From assembly GCA_041609735.1 (NCBI GenBank), contig JBFIQH010000001.1, forward strand, positions 1-51,202: a stretch of 51,202 nt of DNA, read 5' to 3'. Position numbers and translations under genes: made by a program. This stretch comes from Woeseiaceae bacterium. GTDB lineage: Bacteria; Pseudomonadota; Gammaproteobacteria; Steroidobacterales; Woeseiaceae. Position 1 is the first letter of the stretch; each line of letters begins with the position of its first letter. Shown here one piece after another: positions 6,202-51,202 of the stretch. The notes beneath the pieces are model-generated. The model searched no databases. It was not told where the DNA came from and saw nothing but the letters and a program-made list of their open reading frames with translations.

Positions 6202-6565
6202 TGGTGGAGGTGGCGAGAATCGAACTCGCGTCCGCAAGCCCTCTGCTTTGAGCTCTACATGCTTATACCGTCTTTAGATCTCGCTGGCGGCTACCCGACG
6301 GGCAGGGAAGACCGACAGCCAGTTCGGTAAGGATTTAACGGATCCGGCCCCGAACGAGCCATCACCGCGGTTCCGTGTGGATGACTCCCGGGACCCGAAC
6401 GCACGGACACGTATCGGCCGGAAGGCACTAACGCTGGTTTTTAAGCAGCGAGTGCGTAGTTGTCGTCGTTGGCAACTATAGGTTTTACAGGTGGATTTAC
6501 GAGGTGATCTGTCCCTCGGCATGCACTCAAAGGTTCGCGACCCACGTCGAAGCCATGTCACCCCC
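6202..6565 (-). ncRNA. ssrA: tmRNA (SsrA)
   Basis: The minus strand reads 5' GGGGGTGACATGGCTTCGACGTGGGTCGCGAACC ... GCGAGTTCGATTCTCGCCACCTCCACCA 3' (tRNA-Ala-like acceptor/T-arm with CCA). The tag reading frame at 6441..6473 encodes ANDDNYALAA followed by TAA. It lies immediately downstream of smpB. Confidence 0.95.
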
Positions 6566-43687: not shown

Positions 43688-45127
43688 ATGCGACTTTCCG
43701 ATTTACTAGCGGCAGCACCGGAGATGACCCTCCTGGGTATGATTTGCGTCGTTCTGGTCGCCGACCTGTTCGTCGACAATAACAAGCGCGCGATCACGTT
43801 CTGGCTGTCGATCGCGGCATTGCTGTTGACGGCCTGGGCACTGGTCGAGACGGCTCCGGTTGGCCGCGCCGTGATCTTCGACGGCAGTTACGTCAGCGAC
43901 GCGCTGTCGCAAGTGCTCAAACTCGGTGTCGTGCTGTTCGTCGGCATTGCGTTTTTCTATTCGCGTGACTACTTGCGCGCCAACGACCTGAACAAGGGTG
44001 AGTTTTACCTGCTGGGGCTGTTCGGCCTGCTTGGCATGATGGTCATGATTTCCGCGAACAGCCTGCTGACGATGTACATGGGGCTGGAGACGCTCGCGCT
44101 GTCACAGTATGCGCTCGTCGCGATCGACCGCACGAACGTGACCTCGGCCGAAGCTGCGATGAAGTATTTTGTGCTCGGCGCGATTGCCTCTGGGTGCCTG
44201 TTGTACGGCATCTCGTGGGTTTACGGCGCCACCGGCACGATCCAGTTCCACGAGATCGCCAACGTCGTCGCGACTCAGCCCGAGGTCAACGCGCTGCCGT
44301 TGTGGTTTGGCCTTGCCTTCCTCGTCGTCGGCATCGCGTTCAAGTTCGGCGCCGTGCCGTTTCACATGTGGGTGCCGGACGTCTACCAGGGCGCGCGCTC
44401 GTCAGTCACGCTGTACGTCGGATCGGCGCCAAAGCTCGCCGCGCTGGCGCTGACACTACGGGTCCTCGTCGACGGGCTCGGCGGCCTGCACGAACTGTGG
44501 TCGGACATGGTCATGATCATCGCGGTACTGTCGCTGCTGCTCGGCAATTTCATCGCTATCGTGCAGTCGAACATCAAGCGCATGCTGGCCTATTCGACGA
44601 TCGGGCATGTCGGCTTCATCCTGCTGGCCGTGTTTACCGGCACCGAGCAGGGCTATGCTGCAGCGCTGTTCTACACGCTGACCTACGTCGTCGCCGCGGC
44701 GGGCGCATTCGGCATGATCATCCTGTTGAGCCGGCGCGGCTACGAAGCGGAAAACCTGTCCGACTTCAAGGGACTGAACGCGCGCAGCCCTTGGTACGCG
44801 GTGCTGATGATGTTCCTGATGTTCAGCATGGCGGGCATTCCGCCGTTCATCGGCTTCTTCGGCAAGCTGAATGCAATCAACGCGGTCCTCGCGATCGGCT
44901 ACACCGAGCTGGCCGTCATCATGGTGCTGGCCTCGGTCGTCGGCGCCTACTACTACCTGCGCGTCATCTGGTACATGTATTTCGAGGACCCGGCCGATCA
45001 GGCCGTCCTGGCAACCAGTACCGACACCCGCCTCGTCATGAGCCTGAACGGCGTTGCCGTGCTGGCGCTGGGCCTGCTGCCCGGCTGGCTTTGGACCTTG
45101 TGCCTGCAGGTGCTCGCCGCGCGCTGA
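43688..45127 (+). CDS. nuoN: NADH-quinone oxidoreductase subunit N
   Basis: FKFGAVPFHMWVPDVYQGA, IKRMLAYSTIGHVGF. Confidence 0.96.
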   Translation: MRLSDLLAAAPEMTLLGMICVVLVADLFVDNNKRAITFWLSIAALLLTAWALVETAPVGRAVIFDGSYVSDALSQVLKLGVVLFVGIAFFYSRDYLRANDLNKGEFYLLGLFGLLGMMVMISANSLLTMYMGLETLALSQYALVAIDRTNVTSAEAAMKYFVLGAIASGCLLYGISWVYGATGTIQFHEIANVVATQPEVNALPLWFGLAFLVVGIAFKFGAVPFHMWVPDVYQGARSSVTLYVGSAPKLAALALTLRVLVDGLGGLHELWSDMVMIIAVLSLLLGNFIAIVQSNIKRMLAYSTIGHVGFILLAVFTGTEQGYAAALFYTLTYVVAAAGAFGMIILLSRRGYEAENLSDFKGLNARSPWYAVLMMFLMFSMAGIPPFIGFFGKLNAINAVLAIGYTELAVIMVLASVVGAYYYLRVIWYMYFEDPADQAVLATSTDTRLVMSLNGVAVLALGLLPGWLWTLCLQVLAAR

Positions 45128-45212
45128 TTCCGCGACCTGCGGAGTTGACATAATGCCGAAATTTCGGGCCGGAATGGCTTAAGAACCGCATTCCGCCGCC
45201 GATCTAACAGGC

Positions 45213-46451
45213 ATGAGTGTTGCGGAAGATCTCAGCGCAGAGCTGCAGCTGCCTGATGAGGCGGCAAGCAGTGCCCCGGTATCCGTGCTGTTGATCGACG
45301 ACGATCCGGCATCCACGCACCTTTGTGCCCGCTACCTCGGGCGCGAAAAGACACACGGCTACGATCTTGTATCGACGGATACCGCGGCGGACGGCGTGGC
45401 CGCAGCCGTTGGCGGTAAATTCGACATCCTGCTCATCGACTATTACCTGCCGGGCTCCAGCGCAATCGAGGTCATCGAGAAGATTCAAGAGCGCCTCGGC
45501 GAAAACGCGCCGCCGGCGATTGTTTTAACCGCCGACGATAGCGCAACGACGGCGACAAAGGCGATGCACGCCGGCGCATCCGATTTCCTCGCGAAAAAAG
45601 CGCTGTCGCCGGAATCACTGTCGCGGTCGATCATGAATGCAGTCGACAAGAGCAAGCTGAAGCAGACGGCAAGGGAACGGCGACAGCAGATTATCGAGAT
45701 GAACGAGCGGCTGGTTCGCAAGGGCCAGGAGCTGCAGCGCTTTTACCAGAGCGTCTCGCACGAGGTGAAAACGCCGCTCGCTGCGGCACGCGAGTTCATC
45801 GCATTGACGCTTGACGGTGTAGCAGGACCGGTCAACGACAAGCAGGTCGAATTTTTGACGTATGCCATCGATTCCTGTGATCAGATCACTGCGCATTTCA
45901 ATGACCTGCTCGAAATGACGCGCCTGGATACCGGCAAGGTTCGGCTGGATCTCGAGTGGGCCGAGTTTGATGCCGTCATCGCACGCTGCCTGGCCTCCGC
46001 GGCTGCAGCTGTCGAGGCTCGCCAGCTGTATGTCCAGCTGCAGAAGCAGGATTCGCTGCCGAAAGTTCGATTTGATATGAATCGCATCGTGCAGGTGGTC
46101 TCGAACCTGCTGAACAACGCGGTCAAGTTCAGTCCTGTCGAAGGCAAGATCGTCATCAATGTGGGACAGACCGAAAACGGTCGTCGCATGCGGATCAGTG
46201 TCGCCGACGAAGGCTGCGGCATACACGAAGACGAACTGCCGCAGGTATTCGAGCGTCTATACCAGGCCAGGGTGGAAGGGGAACAGCAAACAGAAGCGGG
46301 ACTGGGCCTTGGCCTTAGTATCGCCAGGGAAATCGTGCTGCTGCACGGTGGGTCTATTTGGGCAGAGAGTTTTCTCGGTCGCGGGAGTACGTTTTACATC
46401 GAACTTCCCGTCGAAGGGCCTCCGCCATCTCTCACGGAGGTTAAGCAATGA
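45213..46451 (+). CDS. cytoplasmic hybrid protein: N-terminal receiver (REC) fused to a histidine kinase core (HisKA + HATPase_c)
   Basis: REC: LLIDDD, phospho-acceptor Asp in ILLIDYYLPG (D76), VLTADD, FLAKK. Coiled linker, then H-box SVSHEVKTPL (His codon 45759-45761). N box NLLNNAVKF, G1 DEGCGI, F box VFERLYQ, G2 GLGLGLSIA. No TM segment. Confidence 0.88.
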   Translation: MSVAEDLSAELQLPDEAASSAPVSVLLIDDDPASTHLCARYLGREKTHGYDLVSTDTAADGVAAAVGGKFDILLIDYYLPGSSAIEVIEKIQERLGENAPPAIVLTADDSATTATKAMHAGASDFLAKKALSPESLSRSIMNAVDKSKLKQTARERRQQIIEMNERLVRKGQELQRFYQSVSHEVKTPLAAAREFIALTLDGVAGPVNDKQVEFLTYAIDSCDQITAHFNDLLEMTRLDTGKVRLDLEWAEFDAVIARCLASAAAAVEARQLYVQLQKQDSLPKVRFDMNRIVQVVSNLLNNAVKFSPVEGKIVINVGQTENGRRMRISVADEGCGIHEDELPQVFERLYQARVEGEQQTEAGLGLGLSIAREIVLLHGGSIWAESFLGRGSTFYIELPVEGPPPSLTEVKQ

Positions 46452-46855
46452 AAACGGTACTCATGATCGAGGACGACGCAAAGGTCAGCCTGGCGCTGGG
46501 CATTCGGCTCAAGTCGATGGGCTACGAGGTCACAACGGCAGCCGATGCTGTCTCGGCAGTCAGCCAGGCGAGAAAATGTGCTCCCGACGTCATCCTGATT
46601 GATATCAACCTGCCCGGTGGCGACGGGTTCGTTGTCGCTCAGCGCCTGAAGACGCTGGTGCAGACGTCTGCGACCCCAATGATATTTATCACCGCCAGCA
46701 AGAAAGCGGGCTTGAAGGAACGCGCGAAGGAACTGGGCGCAGTCGCGTTTCTCGAGAAGCCGTTTACCGCTACCGAAATGGCCGATGCCATCGAAATGTC
46801 GCTCTACTCAATGAGTACAGAGGAAGGGCAATCCAGCGAAGCGATGATCGGCTAG
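46448..46855 (+). CDS. stand-alone CheY-like response regulator receiver (no output domain)
   Basis: 135 aa. MIEDD, VILIDINLPGGDG (D52), IFITAS, LEKPF. ATGA overlap with the preceding kinase gene. Confidence 0.88.
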   Translation: MKTVLMIEDDAKVSLALGIRLKSMGYEVTTAADAVSAVSQARKCAPDVILIDINLPGGDGFVVAQRLKTLVQTSATPMIFITASKKAGLKERAKELGAVAFLEKPFTATEMADAIEMSLYSMSTEEGQSSEAMIG

Positions 46856-46867
46856 GGAGCGGCGGTG

Positions 46868-47167
46868 ATGAGTGCCGAACCTTCCGACGTCACCAGGGCG
46901 GCGTCGAGGAAGCGTTTTCACGATCTGCGTGCGCCGCTGATAACGATGCAGGGCTTCGGTGATGAACTGGCCAAGGCCTTCGCACGCCTCGCGGAGCTGG
47001 TCGAGGATCATCAGCAAGCGTTACCTGACGACTACCTTGCGTTGACCAGGGAGGTCCTCGAGCGCGACATCAATCCTTGCCTTGGTTATATGCGTTCGTC
47101 GGTCCGTAAACTCGGTGACGCGCTCGATGACCTTGCATCCGACGCGACGTCGGATCCGCGGCGATGA
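46868..47167 (+). CDS. small stand-alone HisKA/DHp-like protein with H-box and no ATPase domain
   Basis: Translation ...SRKRFHDLRAPLITMQGFGDELAKAF... (His codon 46919-46921) matches the HisKA H-box. It is followed by about 70 aa of helix-like sequence and then stops. GGGAG lies 7 nt upstream of ATG 46868 (GTG 46865 is an alternative start). The stop overlaps the start of the CHASE kinase gene (ATGA). Confidence 0.7.
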   Translation: MSAEPSDVTRAASRKRFHDLRAPLITMQGFGDELAKAFARLAELVEDHQQALPDDYLALTREVLERDINPCLGYMRSSVRKLGDALDDLASDATSDPRR

Positions 47168-48981
47168 CAACGTCGGCCGAAAAGCGCTACTCGCGCAAGA
47201 TCGACGAGGAACGTCGCGCACTCGGCGTCGCGGGGCGCCTGCATTGGGTGCACTGGGCGATCGTTATCCTGTCCGCCGGCGCAACTGTCGCCGCGTGGAA
47301 TTTTTCGCGCGGCCAGGTCCAGGAAAAGCAGCAGATTCAGTTCGATCGTGAGGCGCAACAGGTCGTCGAGCTCGTCGCGGAACGCATGAAGAAATACGAA
47401 GATGCGTTGTGGAGCGGCGTGGCGGCCGTGCATGCACTGGAGGGGCAGCTCGACTACGACGAGTGGCGAGCGTTTGCTGCGGCTCTGCAAATCGATACCA
47501 AGTACCCGGGCATCAACGGCATCGGCGTCATCGTACCCGTCGCGCGTCCCGTCCGCGAGACGTTCGAACGCGCGCAGTACAGCTGGCTGCCGGGGTTCAG
47601 GATATACCCGGAGCATGACGAGCCGGGACTGATGCCGATACGGTTTATCGAACCAATCGAGCCGAACCTAAAAGCGGTGGGTCTCGACATGGCCCATGAA
47701 GAAAACCGCTACCGGTCTGCACTGAATGCCCGCCGCACCGGGACGGCGCAAATAACCGGCCCGATCGTTCTGGTTCAGGACGAAGGCAGTACTCCGGGCT
47801 TTCTGTTCTACGCGCCGTTTTATTCCGGCGACGCTGATACCGAATCGGATCGGGTCAGCAACTTTGCGGGCCTTGTCTACGCGCCTTTTGTCGTGCGCAA
47901 GCTGATGGCCGGCACCCTGCAGCAGGAAAAGCGCCGCGTCGGCATCCAGCTGACGGACGGGGAGATCGTAATTTACGGCGACGAGGAAGAATCATCCGCC
48001 GGGCGCAAGTCGCAAGTCTCTTTCTCGCGCACCGAGGCCGTGCCGATGTACGGCAGAACCTGGACGTTCGATATCTGGGCAAAAGACTCTTTTATCGACG
48101 CGACGGCGAACTCACAGCCGGCCCTGATTTTAATCGGCGGCATGACGATCGATGCACTGCTGCTGACGATATTCATTACGCTGTCGCGCACGAACCGGCG
48201 CTCGGTCAAGTTCGCAGAGCGCATGAATCGAGCGCTGATCCGCAAGACCGACGAACTCGCTGAGATGAACGACGATCTCGAGAGCTTTGCCTACATCGCG
48301 TCACATGATCTGAAGACGCCATTGCGAGGCATTACGGATCTGGTCGAGTATGTGCGTGAAGACCTGCGGCCGTACCTCGAGAGCAGTGATGCGAATCCGG
48401 ATATCGAGTACAACCTCGACCGGATCACCCAGCAGACCGATCGAATGGAGCGCCTGATTCGCGGGGTTCTCGACTACTCCGGCGTTGGCAAGCGAGAGGA
48501 ATCCGTCGAGCTCGTCAATCTCGACGCGCTGATAAAGACGCTGGCGAACGAACTCGATGTCGAACCAGGGCAGCTGCGGCTCGACGGCGACATGCGGGAG
48601 TTCCCGACGTATCGGGTACGCCTCGAGCAGGTGCTCGGTAATCTCGTCGGCAATGCATTCAAGTATCACCACGACAGAGACAGCGCCAGCGTTGTTGTTG
48701 CCGCACACGCCGACCGCGACCGTGTCTCGTTCAGTGTCACCGACAACGGCCCGGGCATCGATCCGCGGTTTCACGGCCGGATTTTTGATGTATTTCAGAC
48801 GCTTCAGCCGCGCGACCAGATCGAAAGCACCGGTGTCGGGCTCTCGATCGTCAAGAAAGCCGTCGAGTCGGTTGGCAGCAAAGTCCGAATCAAGTCCACG
48901 CCTGGCGAGGGCACGTCGTTCTCGTTCGAGTGGCCAATCGTGCGGGAGACAGCAGAGCCCCGGGCGGCAGAGGTGGTTTAG
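47164..48981 (+). CDS. membrane sensor histidine kinase with periplasmic CHASE domain
   Basis: TM1 about aa 26-46, TM2 about aa 319-341. Between them, YPGINGIGVIVPV...PIRFIEPIEPNLKAVGLDMAHEENRYRSALNARRTGTAQITGPIVLVQDEGSTPGFLFYAPFY matches the CHASE pattern. H-box IASHDLKTPLRGI (His codon 48304-48306). N box GNLVGNAFKY, G1 DNGPGI, F box IFDVFQT, G2 GVGLSIVKK. Confidence 0.88.
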   Translation: MTTSAEKRYSRKIDEERRALGVAGRLHWVHWAIVILSAGATVAAWNFSRGQVQEKQQIQFDREAQQVVELVAERMKKYEDALWSGVAAVHALEGQLDYDEWRAFAAALQIDTKYPGINGIGVIVPVARPVRETFERAQYSWLPGFRIYPEHDEPGLMPIRFIEPIEPNLKAVGLDMAHEENRYRSALNARRTGTAQITGPIVLVQDEGSTPGFLFYAPFYSGDADTESDRVSNFAGLVYAPFVVRKLMAGTLQQEKRRVGIQLTDGEIVIYGDEEESSAGRKSQVSFSRTEAVPMYGRTWTFDIWAKDSFIDATANSQPALILIGGMTIDALLLTIFITLSRTNRRSVKFAERMNRALIRKTDELAEMNDDLESFAYIASHDLKTPLRGITDLVEYVREDLRPYLESSDANPDIEYNLDRITQQTDRMERLIRGVLDYSGVGKREESVELVNLDALIKTLANELDVEPGQLRLDGDMREFPTYRVRLEQVLGNLVGNAFKYHHDRDSASVVVAAHADRDRVSFSVTDNGPGIDPRFHGRIFDVFQTLQPRDQIESTGVGLSIVKKAVESVGSKVRIKSTPGEGTSFSFEWPIVRETAEPRAAEVV

Positions 48982-49416
48982 ATGGCAATCAAGACAGTAA
49001 GTATTCTGCTCGTAGAAGACAACGACCTGGACGCAGAGAAGCTGCAACGCATACTCGATCGTTTGGGCGACAAGCGTCCGATTACCCGCGCCCGAGACGG
49101 CATCGAGGCGCTGGAACTGCTGCGCGATCCCGAACGACAGCCGAGGCCGCCGTTCGTCATCATCCTCGATCTCAACATGCCGCGCATGAATGGCCAGGAA
49201 TTCCTTGCCGAACTGCGCGCAGATTCGTCATTGAAAGGCCTGCCGGTAGTCGTGCTGACGACGTCGGATCGCCGCGCGGACATCGAGCAGGCCTATTCGA
49301 ACCAGGTCAGCGGTTACCTGACGAAACCGCTCGACCTAGAGGACACGGCCGCGATGCTGCAGTCGATCTGCGAATTCTGGGGTCGCTGCGAGTTTCCCAA
49401 CGCTGGCGTCGTCTGA
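48982..49416 (+). CDS. stand-alone response regulator receiver (Rcp1-like single-domain REC)
   Basis: ILLVEDNDLD, VIILDLNMPRMNG (D63), VVVLTTS, YLTKP. ATG immediately follows the kinase stop (TAGATG). Confidence 0.88.
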   Translation: MAIKTVSILLVEDNDLDAEKLQRILDRLGDKRPITRARDGIEALELLRDPERQPRPPFVIILDLNMPRMNGQEFLAELRADSSLKGLPVVVLTTSDRRADIEQAYSNQVSGYLTKPLDLEDTAAMLQSICEFWGRCEFPNAGVV

Positions 49417-49793
49417 TGACGGCGGAGGGATCTGAGCAGGTTAGCCTCGTCTGTGTCGACGATGATTCGCTAATGCTCGAATTTATCGAGCGCCGCCTCA
49501 GGGACCGACCCGGACATTTGAAGTGCTTTTCTGAGCCAAACGCAGCTATCGATTTTCTGGCCAAAAACGAGGTAAGAACGATTCTGGTCGACCAGCGTAT
49601 GCCGACGATGAATGGCATCGAATTTCTGAAGATTCTGGCCGCCCGCGGCTCCAATGGCGCCGCTCGCAAGATCCTGTTCTCAGCGATCGCGCCGGACCCC
49701 GATACCTGCGACGCTGCCGGCGCGCTGGGGGCAGAAACGCTCGAAAAGGACCGGATCCGGAACCGCGATACACTGCTCGAAATGCTGAACTGA
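49416..49793 (+). CDS. stand-alone receiver-domain protein (third free REC)
   Basis: C-terminal 125 codons of ORF 48930..49793, starting at ATG 49416 (TGATG overlap with the previous gene). VCVDDD, ILVDQRMPTMNG (D59), ILFSA, LEKD. Confidence 0.75.
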   Translation: MTAEGSEQVSLVCVDDDSLMLEFIERRLRDRPGHLKCFSEPNAAIDFLAKNEVRTILVDQRMPTMNGIEFLKILAARGSNGAARKILFSAIAPDPDTCDAAGALGAETLEKDRIRNRDTLLEMLN

Positions 49794-49831
49794 GCGCTGG
49801 ATGTCGTGATTGGCAAGGCCTCGCGCCGGGG

Positions 49832-49860
49832 TTGTCATTTTACGGGCACGTCAGTATAGT
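49832..49860 (+). promoter_or_regulatory. sigma70 promoter for tRNA-fMet
   Basis: TTGTCA (49832-49837), 17-nt spacer, TATAGT (49855-49860), then a GC-rich discriminator TCCCACCC. The tRNA starts 14 nt after the -10. Confidence 0.7.
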
Positions 49861-49874
49861 TCCCACCCTGCCGA

Positions 49875-49951
49875 TGCGGGGTGGAGCAGTCTGGCAGCTC
49901 GTCGGGCTCATAACCCGAAGGTCGCAGGTTCAAATCCTGCCCCCGCTACCA
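49875..49951 (+). tRNA. metY: initiator tRNA-fMet (anticodon CAT)
   Basis: Near-identical in layout to E. coli tRNA-fMet as recalled. A11:U24, three G:C pairs closing the anticodon stem (TCGGG/CCCGA), loop CTCATAA (CAT at 49909-49911), T-arm GCAGGTTCAAATCCTGC, 3' ACCA encoded. Positions 1:72 are unpaired (U:U). Confidence 0.93.
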
Positions 49952-49960
49952 AATGAAGAG

Positions 49961-49986
49961 AGGGCCCCTAATAGGGGCCCTTTTTC
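49961..49986 (+). terminator. rho-independent terminator after tRNA-fMet
   Basis: AGGGCCCCT-aat-AGGGGCCCT followed by TTTTT. Confidence 0.8.
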
Positions 49987-50208: not shown

Positions 50209-51202
50209 TTACCTCGGTTCAGGCTCGCGATCAATACGCGAAAAGATCGCGCCGTGCGGAATGCTGGCGCCGGTTTTACCATGCGGCCATTGTTCCCGCG
50301 TCATGTCCAGGCCGGGATACGCCGAACCTGGGCTTCGCAGATCTTTAATAATTGTGAGTTTGCCGTTTGTCGGATTTAGCTGCAGCAGCACGACTCTGCC
50401 AGCGAGCCAGCCATTCCTGCCAGTGAGGGCGATGCGGTTGCCACCCAACTCACCCGAAACCCAGTGCGGTCTAACGGGTCCATCGAGAACCAGCTCATCG
50501 ACCTCCCTCGGATGATACGGATCCGATATATCCAGCACGACAAGAGAACTGGCGCCCTCGTTTGTTTGTATCCAGTATTTTCCGATGCGCCAGGGCACGC
50601 TGCATTGATCACCGGCGTCGAAAGATTCGAACGGAAATGATTTCACCAGGGTTGCTTGCGGATTTTCGGTGTCAATGTCCGAAAGAACATACAATCCGCA
50701 GCGAAACGTCGTAACGATGACGGTCTTACCATCATCCAACAAGCGCGCTTCAGCCACGTCCAAATTTTCGTCGCCCCGTGGGCCGGGCGGTAACAACACC
50801 GTGTGCAGGAGTTTCAGGTCGGACATTCTCCATATCTGCACCGAGCGACCTTCCATCTTTGCCCACATGTCGCCGGTTGTTGTCACGACACGGTCCATCG
50901 CTGCAATCGGCGTAACGCTGTATGGCCGGAGCTCCGGGTCCGTTGGGTCCGCGGCGTCGCTGCCGCGAATATAACCACCGGTCGGGTCCAGCTCGACCAG
51001 GCCACCGGCTTCGGAGTCCTTCTCGCCCTTATTGTGAAACGTTGCCAGTACCGTGCCGGTAGGGGTGCGCTCAAAGCTGTGAGGGTAGGTATAAGGCCCG
51101 GCACGATCGAATGCGGATGCCACCACGGGCCGAAGCGGATTCGCCACATTGATGACAAAAGACTTGCCGGTCATGAAACCATTGGCAAAGAACATATCGC
51201 CT
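50209..51202 (-). CDS. beta-propeller-like protein of uncertain family (LVIVD-repeat / selenium-binding-protein-like), 5' end beyond window
   Basis: The frame stays open past the listed ATG 51195 to the window edge. SSLVVLDISDPYHPREV resembles an LVIVD repeat. The layout loosely recalls SBP56-type propellers. No firm family call is possible by eye. Confidence 0.5.
   Translation of the reverse strand, partial: GDMFFANGFMTGKSFVINVANPLRPVVASAFDRAGPYTYPHSFERTPTGTVLATFHNKGEKDSEAGGLVELDPTGGYIRGSDAADPTDPELRPYSVTPIAAMDRVVTTTGDMWAKMEGRSVQIWRMSDLKLLHTVLLPPGPRGDENLDVAEARLLDDGKTVIVTTFRCGLYVLSDIDTENPQATLVKSFPFESFDAGDQCSVPWRIGKYWIQTNEGASSLVVLDISDPYHPREVDELVLDGPVRPHWVSGELGGNRIALTGRNGWLAGRVVLLQLNPTNGKLTIIKDLRSPGSAYPGLDMTREQWPHGKTGASIPHGAIFSRIDREPEPR

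Follow-up and report, generated by a model that had tools for sequence, protein, structure and literature searches.

How can two histidine kinases, four receiver domains and a small protein built around an H-box lie side by side in one gene cluster when none of them carries an effector domain of its own? This question is raised by six plus-strand genes, here called g1 to g6, at positions 45213-49793 of a 51,202-nucleotide stretch of DNA from a Woeseiaceae bacterium (contig JBFIQH010000001.1, assembly GCA_041609735.1); the whole of this stretch is referred to as the window. In order, the genes encode a cytoplasmic kinase of 412 amino acids (aa) with receiver (REC), HisKA and HATPase domains (g1, 45213-46451), a single-domain receiver of 135 aa (g2, 46448-46855), a stand-alone, HisKA-like dimerization and histidine phosphotransfer (DHp) protein of 99 aa (g3, 46868-47167), a membrane-bound CHASE-HisKA-HATPase sensor kinase of 605 aa (g4, 47164-48981), an Rcp-type single-domain receiver of 144 aa (g5, 48982-49416) and a divergent single-domain receiver of 125 aa (g6, 49416-49793). 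The best explanation for this arrangement is that the six genes form one conserved multi-component phosphorelay which joins the two histidine kinases and itself lacks any effector domain. What is new beyond an earlier note, made from the DNA letters of the window, is the family of g3 itself, a stand-alone DHp family that has so far gone unannotated.

The identity of g3 is not apparent from standard domain searches. The protein matches no Pfam family at threshold, and against Pfam HisKA (PF00512) it scores 12.9 bits (E = 0.12), short of the gathering threshold of 26.9 bits. It does contain the H-box motif H-[DE]-[LIVMF]-[RK]-x-P-[LIVM], in the form H18-D-L-R-A-P-L on helix 1. A word-indexed search with g3 returned seven close relatives only, each 99 aa long and without a Pfam domain or a name. 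When a profile of the g3 relatives was run through an exhaustive HMMER search, 660 proteins were found at E ≤ 1e-3. The best 40 of these 660 matches are 85-133 aa long, apart from one 238-aa fusion, and among the best 150 there are 65 proteins shorter than 135 aa, with a stand-alone length of 83-133 aa. The g3 family thus comprises at least 65 clusters at ≤50% identity. The remaining matches are mostly full-length kinases in which the matched stretch lies about 230 residues before the C-terminus; profile positions 17-90 match the DHp stretch in more than 80 full-length kinases with E values of 1e-9 to 1e-6, and in the two kinases checked by Pfam (P0167, P0172) the matched stretch is the HisKA region immediately ahead of HATPase_c. 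A sub-threshold match to HisKA was also found for 35 of 61 members of the small family (best E = 4e-4). In the PDB, the sequence closest to g3 is the isolated DHp domain of PhoR (5ukv), which aligns over the H-box at a non-significant E = 0.32. SPOB_a and HPTransfase were absent from the leading Pfam matches of the 61 members, and neither g3 nor its family matches the Pfam HPt (histidine phosphotransfer) domain PF01627. Judged by these matches, g3 consists of nothing but a DHp domain; it is related to HisKA below threshold and belongs neither to the Spo0B/ChpT family nor to the HPt proteins. No ATP-binding catalytic (CA) domain follows the DHp, as the next gene opens with the N-terminus of the CHASE kinase. 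An AlphaFold2 model based on the family alignment shows g3 as a two-helix hairpin (helices 5-47 and 54-94; predicted local distance difference test score 93.7) and not as the monomeric four-helix bundle of an HPt domain.

The g3 family has its own set of conserved residues. Across 65 members, His18 is present in 63, Asp19 in 64, Pro23 in 61, Glu33 in 63 and Asp67 in 63, followed by Pro70 (52), Cys71 (58) and Arg85 (45), while the position four residues after the histidine (H+4) is Gly or Ala in 59. In 83 kinases of the same long DHp subtype the histidine is preceded by Ser or Ala, where the small family has a hydrophobic residue; positions 70-71 are Glu-Ala or Glu-Ser in these kinases, with Cys in 6 of the 83, and position 85 is hydrophobic. 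Pro70-Cys71 of g3 is encoded at 47075-47080 and lies on helix 2; the Granulosicoccus group of the family has Pro-Ile in its place. The Pro-Cys pair might be redox-sensitive or form part of an interface, and it might add redox control. All six genes of the cluster are under purifying selection, with ratios of nonsynonymous to synonymous substitution (dN/dS, against two relatives) of 0.05-0.11 in g1, g2, g4, g5 and g6 and the highest values, 0.19-0.27, in g3. Compared with the close relative L007, protein identity is 99% for nuoN, the gene next to the cluster, 66% for g3 and 77% for g6; evolution is much faster in the small components than in the flank of the cluster. We also considered g3 as a pseudogene or the remnant of a split kinase and rejected this, because stand-alone length, family-specific residues and purifying selection are all conserved; a family with a signature of its own does not consist of fragments. 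A WXG100/Esx-like reading was likewise discarded, the sequence signal being that of kinase H-boxes and the context that of signalling genes. The family has no Pfam or NCBIfam model and is called 'hypothetical protein' in every source that gives a name. No account of a 'DHp-only' or stand-alone phosphotransferase family turned up in our literature searches; a 2026 preprint merely records that 'incomplete kinases' lacking HisKA or HATPase exist.

What, then, does g3 do with its histidine? In HisKA kinases an acidic residue at H+1 is needed for autophosphorylation and Thr or Asn at H+4 is required for phosphatase activity (PMC3510030). The retention of the His-Asp pair across sequences of only 25-40% identity favours phosphochemistry, while H+4 residues other than Thr or Asn disfavour a phosphatase role, neither point being decisive. 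One alternative dispenses with onward transfer altogether: g3 could act as a small hairpin phosphatase or sink-like regulator of a receiver, comparable to the isolated EnvZ DHp or to Spo0E-type proteins, or it could tune the kinase as a decoy DHp or scaffold, bound to a receiver or to the DHp of g1. A small helical hairpin encoded beside receivers would suit such a role, as would the conserved Glu33, Asp67, Pro70-Cys71 and Arg85, which lie away from the histidine and point to an interaction surface, and the highest dN/dS among the six genes. A phosphatase of the HisKA kind would be expected to have Thr or Asn instead of Gly or Ala at H+4, however, a pure scaffold would have no need of the invariant His-Asp pair, and the hairpin of g3 exceeds the DHp of g1 by about 18 residues, which speaks against heterodimers. 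We consider this group of explanations quite unlikely. Probably g3 passes phosphate between receivers, as far as can be judged from its residues and its gene context.

The other five proteins are of more familiar types. Pfam assigns Response_reg (25-130), HisKA (174-241) and HATPase_c (289-401) to g1, and CHASE (95-266, 155.9 bits), HisKA (373-439, 36.1 bits) and HATPase_c (484-592, 89.6 bits) to g4, whereas g2, g5 and g6 consist of Response_reg alone (81.9 bits in g2, 41.3 bits in g6). An output domain was detected in none of the six proteins by Pfam or NCBIfam, and their lengths leave no space for one. A pattern search located the H, N, G1 and F boxes in each of the two kinases; the G2 box matches the pattern in g1 and was recognized by eye in g4 (TGVGLS). 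The histidine of g1 is His183 within SHEVKTPL and that of g4 His381 within SHDLKTPL, each with Thr at H+4. A hydropathy scan revealed no hydrophobic segment in g1 and a single one in g4, at residues 318-341 after the CHASE domain; the N-terminal membrane segment before CHASE was seen by eye only. In the alignment with CheY the acidic pair and the equivalents of Asp57, Thr/Ser87 and Lys109 are present in all four receivers, the phospho-acceptor being D76 in g1, D52 in g2, D63 in g5 and D59 in g6, so by their residues the four look competent for phosphorylation. In all these respects the account given in the earlier note was borne out: it had described two kinases with complete boxes, four receivers with these same aspartates and an acidic pocket, an H-box-only protein and no output domain, and Pfam architectures and alignments agree. 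Its open reading frames (ORFs), coordinates and junctions were likewise recovered. The genes g1 and g2 meet in ATGA with a 4-nt overlap, the start of g4 overlaps the stop of g3 in another ATGA, g4 and g5 abut without a gap in TAGATG, and g5 and g6 overlap by 1 nt in TGATG. Between g2 and g3 there is a gap of 9 nt if g3 starts at an alternative GTG (46865, giving 100 aa) or of 12 nt if it starts at ATG 46868 (99 aa); the latter is the likely start because homologues of g3 begin with MSAEPSD.

Partners within the set can be proposed from these sequences. The CHASE region of g4 matches the solved chain 6k62 (E = 7e-17), and the structures nearest to its kinase core, after 8f71, include bacteriophytochrome kinases. 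For g5 the nearest structures include RcpB, Rcp1 and RcpA, response regulators of phytochromes, and we infer that g5 is the cognate partner of g4. Receiver g2 is likely a substrate of g1. The four receivers differ at the two positions that mark allosteric, output-type receivers, an aromatic switch residue on beta5 and a Lys-Pro cis-peptide: the switch position is Phe in the receiver of g1 and in g2, Tyr in g5 and Thr in g6, and the conserved Lys is followed by Pro in g2 and g5, with Lys-Lys in g1 and Lys-Asp in g6. Orthologues of g6, which we located in six relatives (L007, L008, L017, L010, L012, L014), retain the acidic DD pair, the Asp, the Ser and the Lys, with Thr, Met, Ala or Val at the switch position and Lys-Asp or Lys-Ser in place of Lys-Pro. 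Variability at the switch position of intermediary receivers has been tied to the loss of allosteric signalling (Brüderlin et al., PMC9981736), and the residue pattern of g6 suggests a non-allosteric shuttle or sink.

We then ask whether the six genes belong together. Gene contexts were drawn from 13 distinct loci of relatives, a sample and not a census. The order of the six genes is kept on contigs of close relatives (L001, L003, L007), in which g3 is 66-77% identical; shorter contigs of this type are truncated on one or both sides. A more distant gammaproteobacterial metagenome-assembled genome (MAG; L017, g4 58% identical) has all six genes, and a Woeseiaceae MAG (L008/L015, g4 56% identical) has g1, g3, g4, g5 and g6 and lacks g2. 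In Granulosicoccus (L010-L012) orthologues of g1 (40-41% identity), g2 (55-56%), g3 (26-28%) and g6 (32-34%) stand in a row, followed by a binding-protein gene on the opposite strand, a HAMP kinase with a g4-like DHp-CA core (35-36%) and an orthologue of g5 (41-42%). The gaps between the genes of this locus are about 40-240 nt, the order is altered and the opposite-strand gene is inserted. As a side observation, in another locus of the Granulosicoccus type a gene for a small Ras/Roc-like GTPase of 169 aa lies upstream of the cluster, with one PAS kinase gene between them (L095, 1124-3954), and is flanked by three genes without Pfam matches. Orthologues of g2 (in L017, L010, L012 and L095) are 55-71% identical to it and each directly follows the g1 orthologue.

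The sensor kinase has a much wider distribution than g3. More than 1400 homologues of g4 were found. A genome scan with the CHASE kinase gave 80 loci, only two of which (L015, L017) have a g3 gene. Most of the 26 species-representative genomes with a full-length relative of g4 encode a g5-like receiver directly downstream, and of these 26 only the two closest have g3. Scanning the GTDB species representatives with the alignment of close g3 relatives yielded 209 pattern matches, none of which was confirmed; the species representatives thus hold no close relative of g3. The pairing of g4 with a g5-like receiver is conserved across phyla, and in Vibrio cholerae (L027, 8808-10505) and Marinomonas profundimaris (L019, 8866-10566) the gene after a CHASE kinase related to g4 (40-42% identity) encodes a REC-GGDEF-EAL protein, which shows that the same sensor family drives the turnover of cyclic di-GMP elsewhere. 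By these comparisons g4-g5 is an old and widespread pair that uses other outputs in other genomes. An unusual split arrangement was observed in Pacificibacter maritimus (L009, 6452-7993, and L013), where a 227-aa receiver with an unassigned 90-aa C-terminal extension is encoded upstream of the CHASE kinase, and a divergent 230-aa protein consists of a DHp-like H-box region and HATPase_c only.

The constant element of the locus is the neighbourhood of g1 and g3. We sampled seven g3 lineages with a mutual identity of ≤43% (the window type, L008, L017, the Granulosicoccus group L010/L012/L095, L094/L097, L096 and the fusion in L093), and in all seven an orthologue of g1 is immediately adjacent, with 37-49% identity over about 380 residues. 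In three fusion proteins (P0145, P0247, P0190) the N-terminal receiver is closest to g5 (28-47% identity) and the C-terminal part to g3 (26-36%), and P0145 adjoins, in divergent orientation, an orthologue of g1 (38% identity). As read from these contexts, g1 and g3 are the invariant core, g3 is the most likely link between the two kinases, and CHASE is a swappable input rather than a defining part.

These comparisons also bear on the possibility that two or three two-component systems which do not communicate (g1-g2, g4-g5 and orphans) have come to lie next to each other by chance. The occurrence of the g4-g5 pair alone in many genomes, with other outputs such as REC-GGDEF-EAL, would fit it. 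All six orthologues nevertheless travel together in two lineages whose g3 proteins are only 26-28% identical, and fusions of g5 and g3 adjoin g1 orthologues. Since the six components persist despite a new order, wider spacing and another sensor, chance can be set aside; we regard it as scarcely credible. Very probably the cluster is a conserved functional signalling unit with a stand-alone DHp protein. The earlier note's view of a functional unit is thus upheld, by the order kept in relatives and by the recurrence of six orthologues in a distant lineage with another order and sensor, and the three observations that it had named in advance as speaking against itself (a cryptic output domain, scattered genes in relatives, receivers without the phosphorylatable Asp) did not turn up. 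Some details need revision. The note had concluded from the tight junctions that stoichiometry is fixed; judging from the spacing and order in Granulosicoccus, translational coupling is a local feature that is not conserved. The CHASE domain is, to judge from the swapped sensor, exchangeable, and the H-box-only protein, which the note had listed as one item among six, is placed by the comparative data with g1 in the core.

The permanent neighbourhood of a complete kinase raises the question whether g3 is simply phosphorylated by one. It could be a detached phospho-acceptor, its His18 phosphorylated in trans by the CA domain of g1 or g4, and would then provide a second DHp with another receiver specificity, for example for g6. 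This would account for the near invariance of His18 and of the acidic H+1 residue, which serves autophosphorylation in kinases (PMC3510030), for the complete kinase that always adjoins g3 and for the overlap of the g4 start with the g3 stop in the window. Compared with kinases of the same subtype, however, Ser or Ala before the histidine has become hydrophobic and the hydrophobic residue at position 85 has become Arg, which suggests that the surface facing the CA domain has been lost, and where g3 is fused it is fused to a receiver and never to a CA domain. The changed CA-facing residues disfavour the detached substrate without being decisive, and we hold it to be very unlikely.

Because of the g4-g5 pairing, the g5-g3 fusions and the adjacency of g3 and g1, we read the set as a His-Asp-His-Asp relay that runs from the CHASE kinase via the Rcp-like receiver and the histidine of the DHp-only protein to the receiver of kinase 1 and on to receiver 2, a wiring to which we would give nearly even chances. 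A periplasmic ligand on the CHASE domain would set the autophosphorylation of g4 at His381, and g4 would phosphorylate its cognate receiver g5 at Asp63. From g5 the phosphoryl group would pass to His18 of a g3 dimer, a kinase-less DHp four-helix bundle that would act as a histidine phosphotransferase in the manner of Spo0B, ChpT or an HPt domain. Phosphorylated g3 would in turn phosphorylate the N-terminal receiver of g1 at Asp76 and so switch the g1 kinase, whose His183 would then phosphorylate g2 at Asp52. Receiver g2, and possibly g5 too, would constitute the output through protein-protein contact with a target outside the cluster, and g6 might serve g3 or g4 as a sink or side shuttle for phosphate. 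These steps and their direction are inferred, as are the dimerisation of g3 and the parts played by g2 and g6. The transfer from receiver to receiver by g3 is backed indirectly, by the g5-type fusions and the adjacency to g1, and there is a precedent for transfer from a receiver to a kinase-like protein that does not autophosphorylate, namely from RedD to RedE (PMC2755868). The suggestion of the earlier note that the CHASE kinase feeds a receiver-gated second kinase is compatible with the data.

Several observations weigh against this wiring. As a start, the minimal loci L094/L097 contain orthologues of g1 and g3 only and no g5-like receiver nearby, so the phosphate source of g3 is not always encoded in cis and g1 could be the donor. 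In Nitrospirales MAGs (L030/L035) we found repeated triads of a sensor kinase, a 150-aa Rcp-like receiver and a REC-HisKA-HATPase kinase without a g3-like gene, from which it follows that a sensor kinase may reach a REC-kinase without a histidine intermediate. The acidic H+1 residue that g3 keeps is the one needed by kinases for autophosphorylation, as would suit trans-phosphorylation by a CA domain. At the DHp specificity positions (H+7, +8, +11, +12, +15) no common pattern of g3, g1 and g4 could be seen by eye from which a partner might be inferred, and the FATGUY motif of shuttle receivers (PMC9981736) occurs in none of the four receivers of the cluster and is of no help with their roles. 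A Foldseek search of the g3 model against the PDB had a histidine kinase as top match, non-significant at E = 0.7, in a list mostly of generic hairpins (Esx, ROP, designed bundles); as helical hairpins are common, this search is uninformative and we did not use it as evidence. Finally, the same adjacency and fusions fit a reverse flow, from the histidine of g1 to its own receiver, to g3 and then to g5 or g6.

This reverse flow leads to the alternative in which g1 is the donor. Kinase g1 would be a hybrid kinase with an N-terminal receiver and g3 its dedicated phosphotransfer protein, the phosphate moving from g1 His183 to g1 Asp76, to g3 His18 and on to g5, g6 or g2, so that g5 would integrate direct input from g4 and relayed input from g1. 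That g1 and g3 are the sole invariant pair, and that L094/L097 hold just these two, would be explained directly, and a fusion of g3 and g5 types could equally be a phosphotransferase with its acceptor. On the other hand, N-terminal receivers on kinases are in described systems usually inputs and seldom relay intermediates, and g2, which directly follows g1, is the better-conserved neighbour (55-71%), as would be expected of a direct substrate of g1. We consider g1 as donor unlikely. As His-Asp transfers are reversible, it differs from the relay that starts at g4 mostly in direction.

Among bacterial response regulators a large proportion are single-domain receivers, and apart from chemotaxis and a few cell-cycle systems little is known of what they act on; to our knowledge, the same largely holds for the path downstream of Rcp-type receivers. 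The conserved gene set, the fusions and the strict pairing point to one route, from an Rcp-type receiver via the DHp-only protein to a receiver-gated kinase. Going one step further, the g3 family may represent a minimal histidine phosphotransferase class that has not been described before, in which a dimer of DHp hairpins works without a CA-like domain and gives Rcp-type receivers a path into receiver-gated kinases; we put this forward tentatively, as a possibility with the balance of probability still against it. If g3 is a phosphotransferase, a DHp hairpin alone would suffice for His-Asp shuttling, the range of phosphorelay intermediates would widen beyond HPt and Spo0B/ChpT, and a family of hypothetical proteins would gain a function. 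It would also become apparent how one two-kinase cascade can serve different sensors, with g1 and g3 as a portable 'second-stage kinase' module for sensor kinases of different kinds (CHASE, HAMP with a binding protein, PAS).

The cluster is bounded by nuoN (43688-45127) directly upstream and a tRNA-Met gene (49875-49951) downstream. The 85-nt intergenic region between nuoN and g1 (45128-45212, plus strand) is a possible regulatory region. Its 7-bp inverted repeat pairs CGGAATG (45170-45176) with CATTCCG (45189-45195) across a 12-nt spacer, and the block holding this repeat is conserved in L007. Neither a sigma-70-like promoter nor a terminator-like site was detected in this region, and the cluster may therefore be transcribed by read-through from the nuo operon or from a promoter of another type. 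No riboswitch or known RNA was found by Rfam within or before the cluster. In L007 nuoN lies upstream as in the window; in L001-L004 a DUF3124 gene, not shown to be nuoN, lies directly upstream of g1, so the flank and the linkage to nuo may not be fixed. On the 3' side of g6 there is a weak terminator-like hairpin (49817-49833), while a promoter-like site (49832-49860) and a strong terminator-like hairpin (49961-49981) belong to the tRNA-Met (CAT) gene itself. Downstream of the tRNA, a minus-strand ORF (50209-51195, 328 aa) has no Pfam match at E ≤ 1e-5. The rest of the window contains no further two-component gene and is otherwise of housekeeping character, with tmRNA, a recN-like gene, NAD kinase, dnaK, carB, ftsH, a glmM-like gene and the nuo operon. 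The tmRNA gene lies on the minus strand (6202-6565, Rfam 229.6 bits) and encodes the tag peptide ANDDNYALAA. Because it holds tmRNA, dnaK, carB, ftsH and the nuo operon, the window is part of the core chromosome.

Known systems share individual features with the cluster. Like the Xanthomonas PcrK-PcrR system and the plant receptor AHK4 (PMC7072313), g4 has an extracytoplasmic CHASE domain joined to a HisKA-HATPase core; the target of PcrK is a receiver with phosphodiesterase activity, whereas the lineage of the window has a relay and a second kinase instead. In the pairs Cph1-Rcp1, RcpA and RcpB (PDB 1i3c, 1k66, 1k68) the likeness lies in g5, which is near to the Rcp receivers, and in the core of g4, which is near to bacteriophytochrome kinases; here, however, the sensor is a CHASE domain and not a bilin-binding module, and g3 and g1, encoded in cis, offer a candidate downstream path. 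The alphaproteobacterial general-stress relays PhyT/SdrG of Sphingomonas and MrrA/LovK/PhyK of Caulobacter also combine single-domain receiver hubs with kinase-like phosphotransferases (PMC5898713, PMC5964349), but these are of the HWE/HisKA_2 type, partly membrane-bound and equipped with CA-like domains, their output is PhyR with a sigma factor, and their shuttle receivers carry the FATGUY motif that g2, g5 and g6 lack. RedCDEF of Myxococcus xanthus (PMC2755868), compared at the level of shared domains only, resembles the cluster in having several kinases and receivers in one operon without an output domain: the receiver protein RedD phosphorylates the kinase-like RedE, which is unable to autophosphorylate, and the part of effector falls to a single-domain receiver. 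RedE, though, is a full-length kinase-like protein, RedD has two receivers, and the system has no DHp-only protein, REC-kinase or CHASE sensor. With the HPt proteins (Ypd1, ArcB-HPt, ShpA; PF01627) g3 would share the phosphotransfer role of its histidine and shares a small H+4 residue, which is typical of HPt proteins too (PMC6341664); these proteins are monomeric four-helix bundles unrelated in sequence, whereas g3 has two helices and a HisKA H-box and would have to dimerise to form a bundle.

Closest in function, with the RedD-to-RedE step and PhyT and MrrA not far off, are the DHp-type histidine phosphotransferases of the relays Spo0F-Spo0B-Spo0A in Bacillus sporulation and CckA-ChpT-CtrA/CpdR in Caulobacter (PMC3433190, PMC9981736). 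Spo0B and ChpT are dimeric, with a hairpin that is related to kinase DHp domains and has a phosphorylatable histidine, do not autophosphorylate and shuttle phosphate from receiver to receiver, which is what we propose, from its sequence features, for g3; a single-domain receiver is an intermediate in their relays, as proposed here too. Both retain a C-terminal pseudo-CA alpha/beta domain, whereas g3 is the hairpin alone with 99 aa, and where their relays end on a transcription factor, the proposed g3 relay would deliver phosphate to the receiver of a second kinase. By analogy, we rate the putative g3 relay as one of the Spo0B/ChpT type that works without the pseudo-CA domain.

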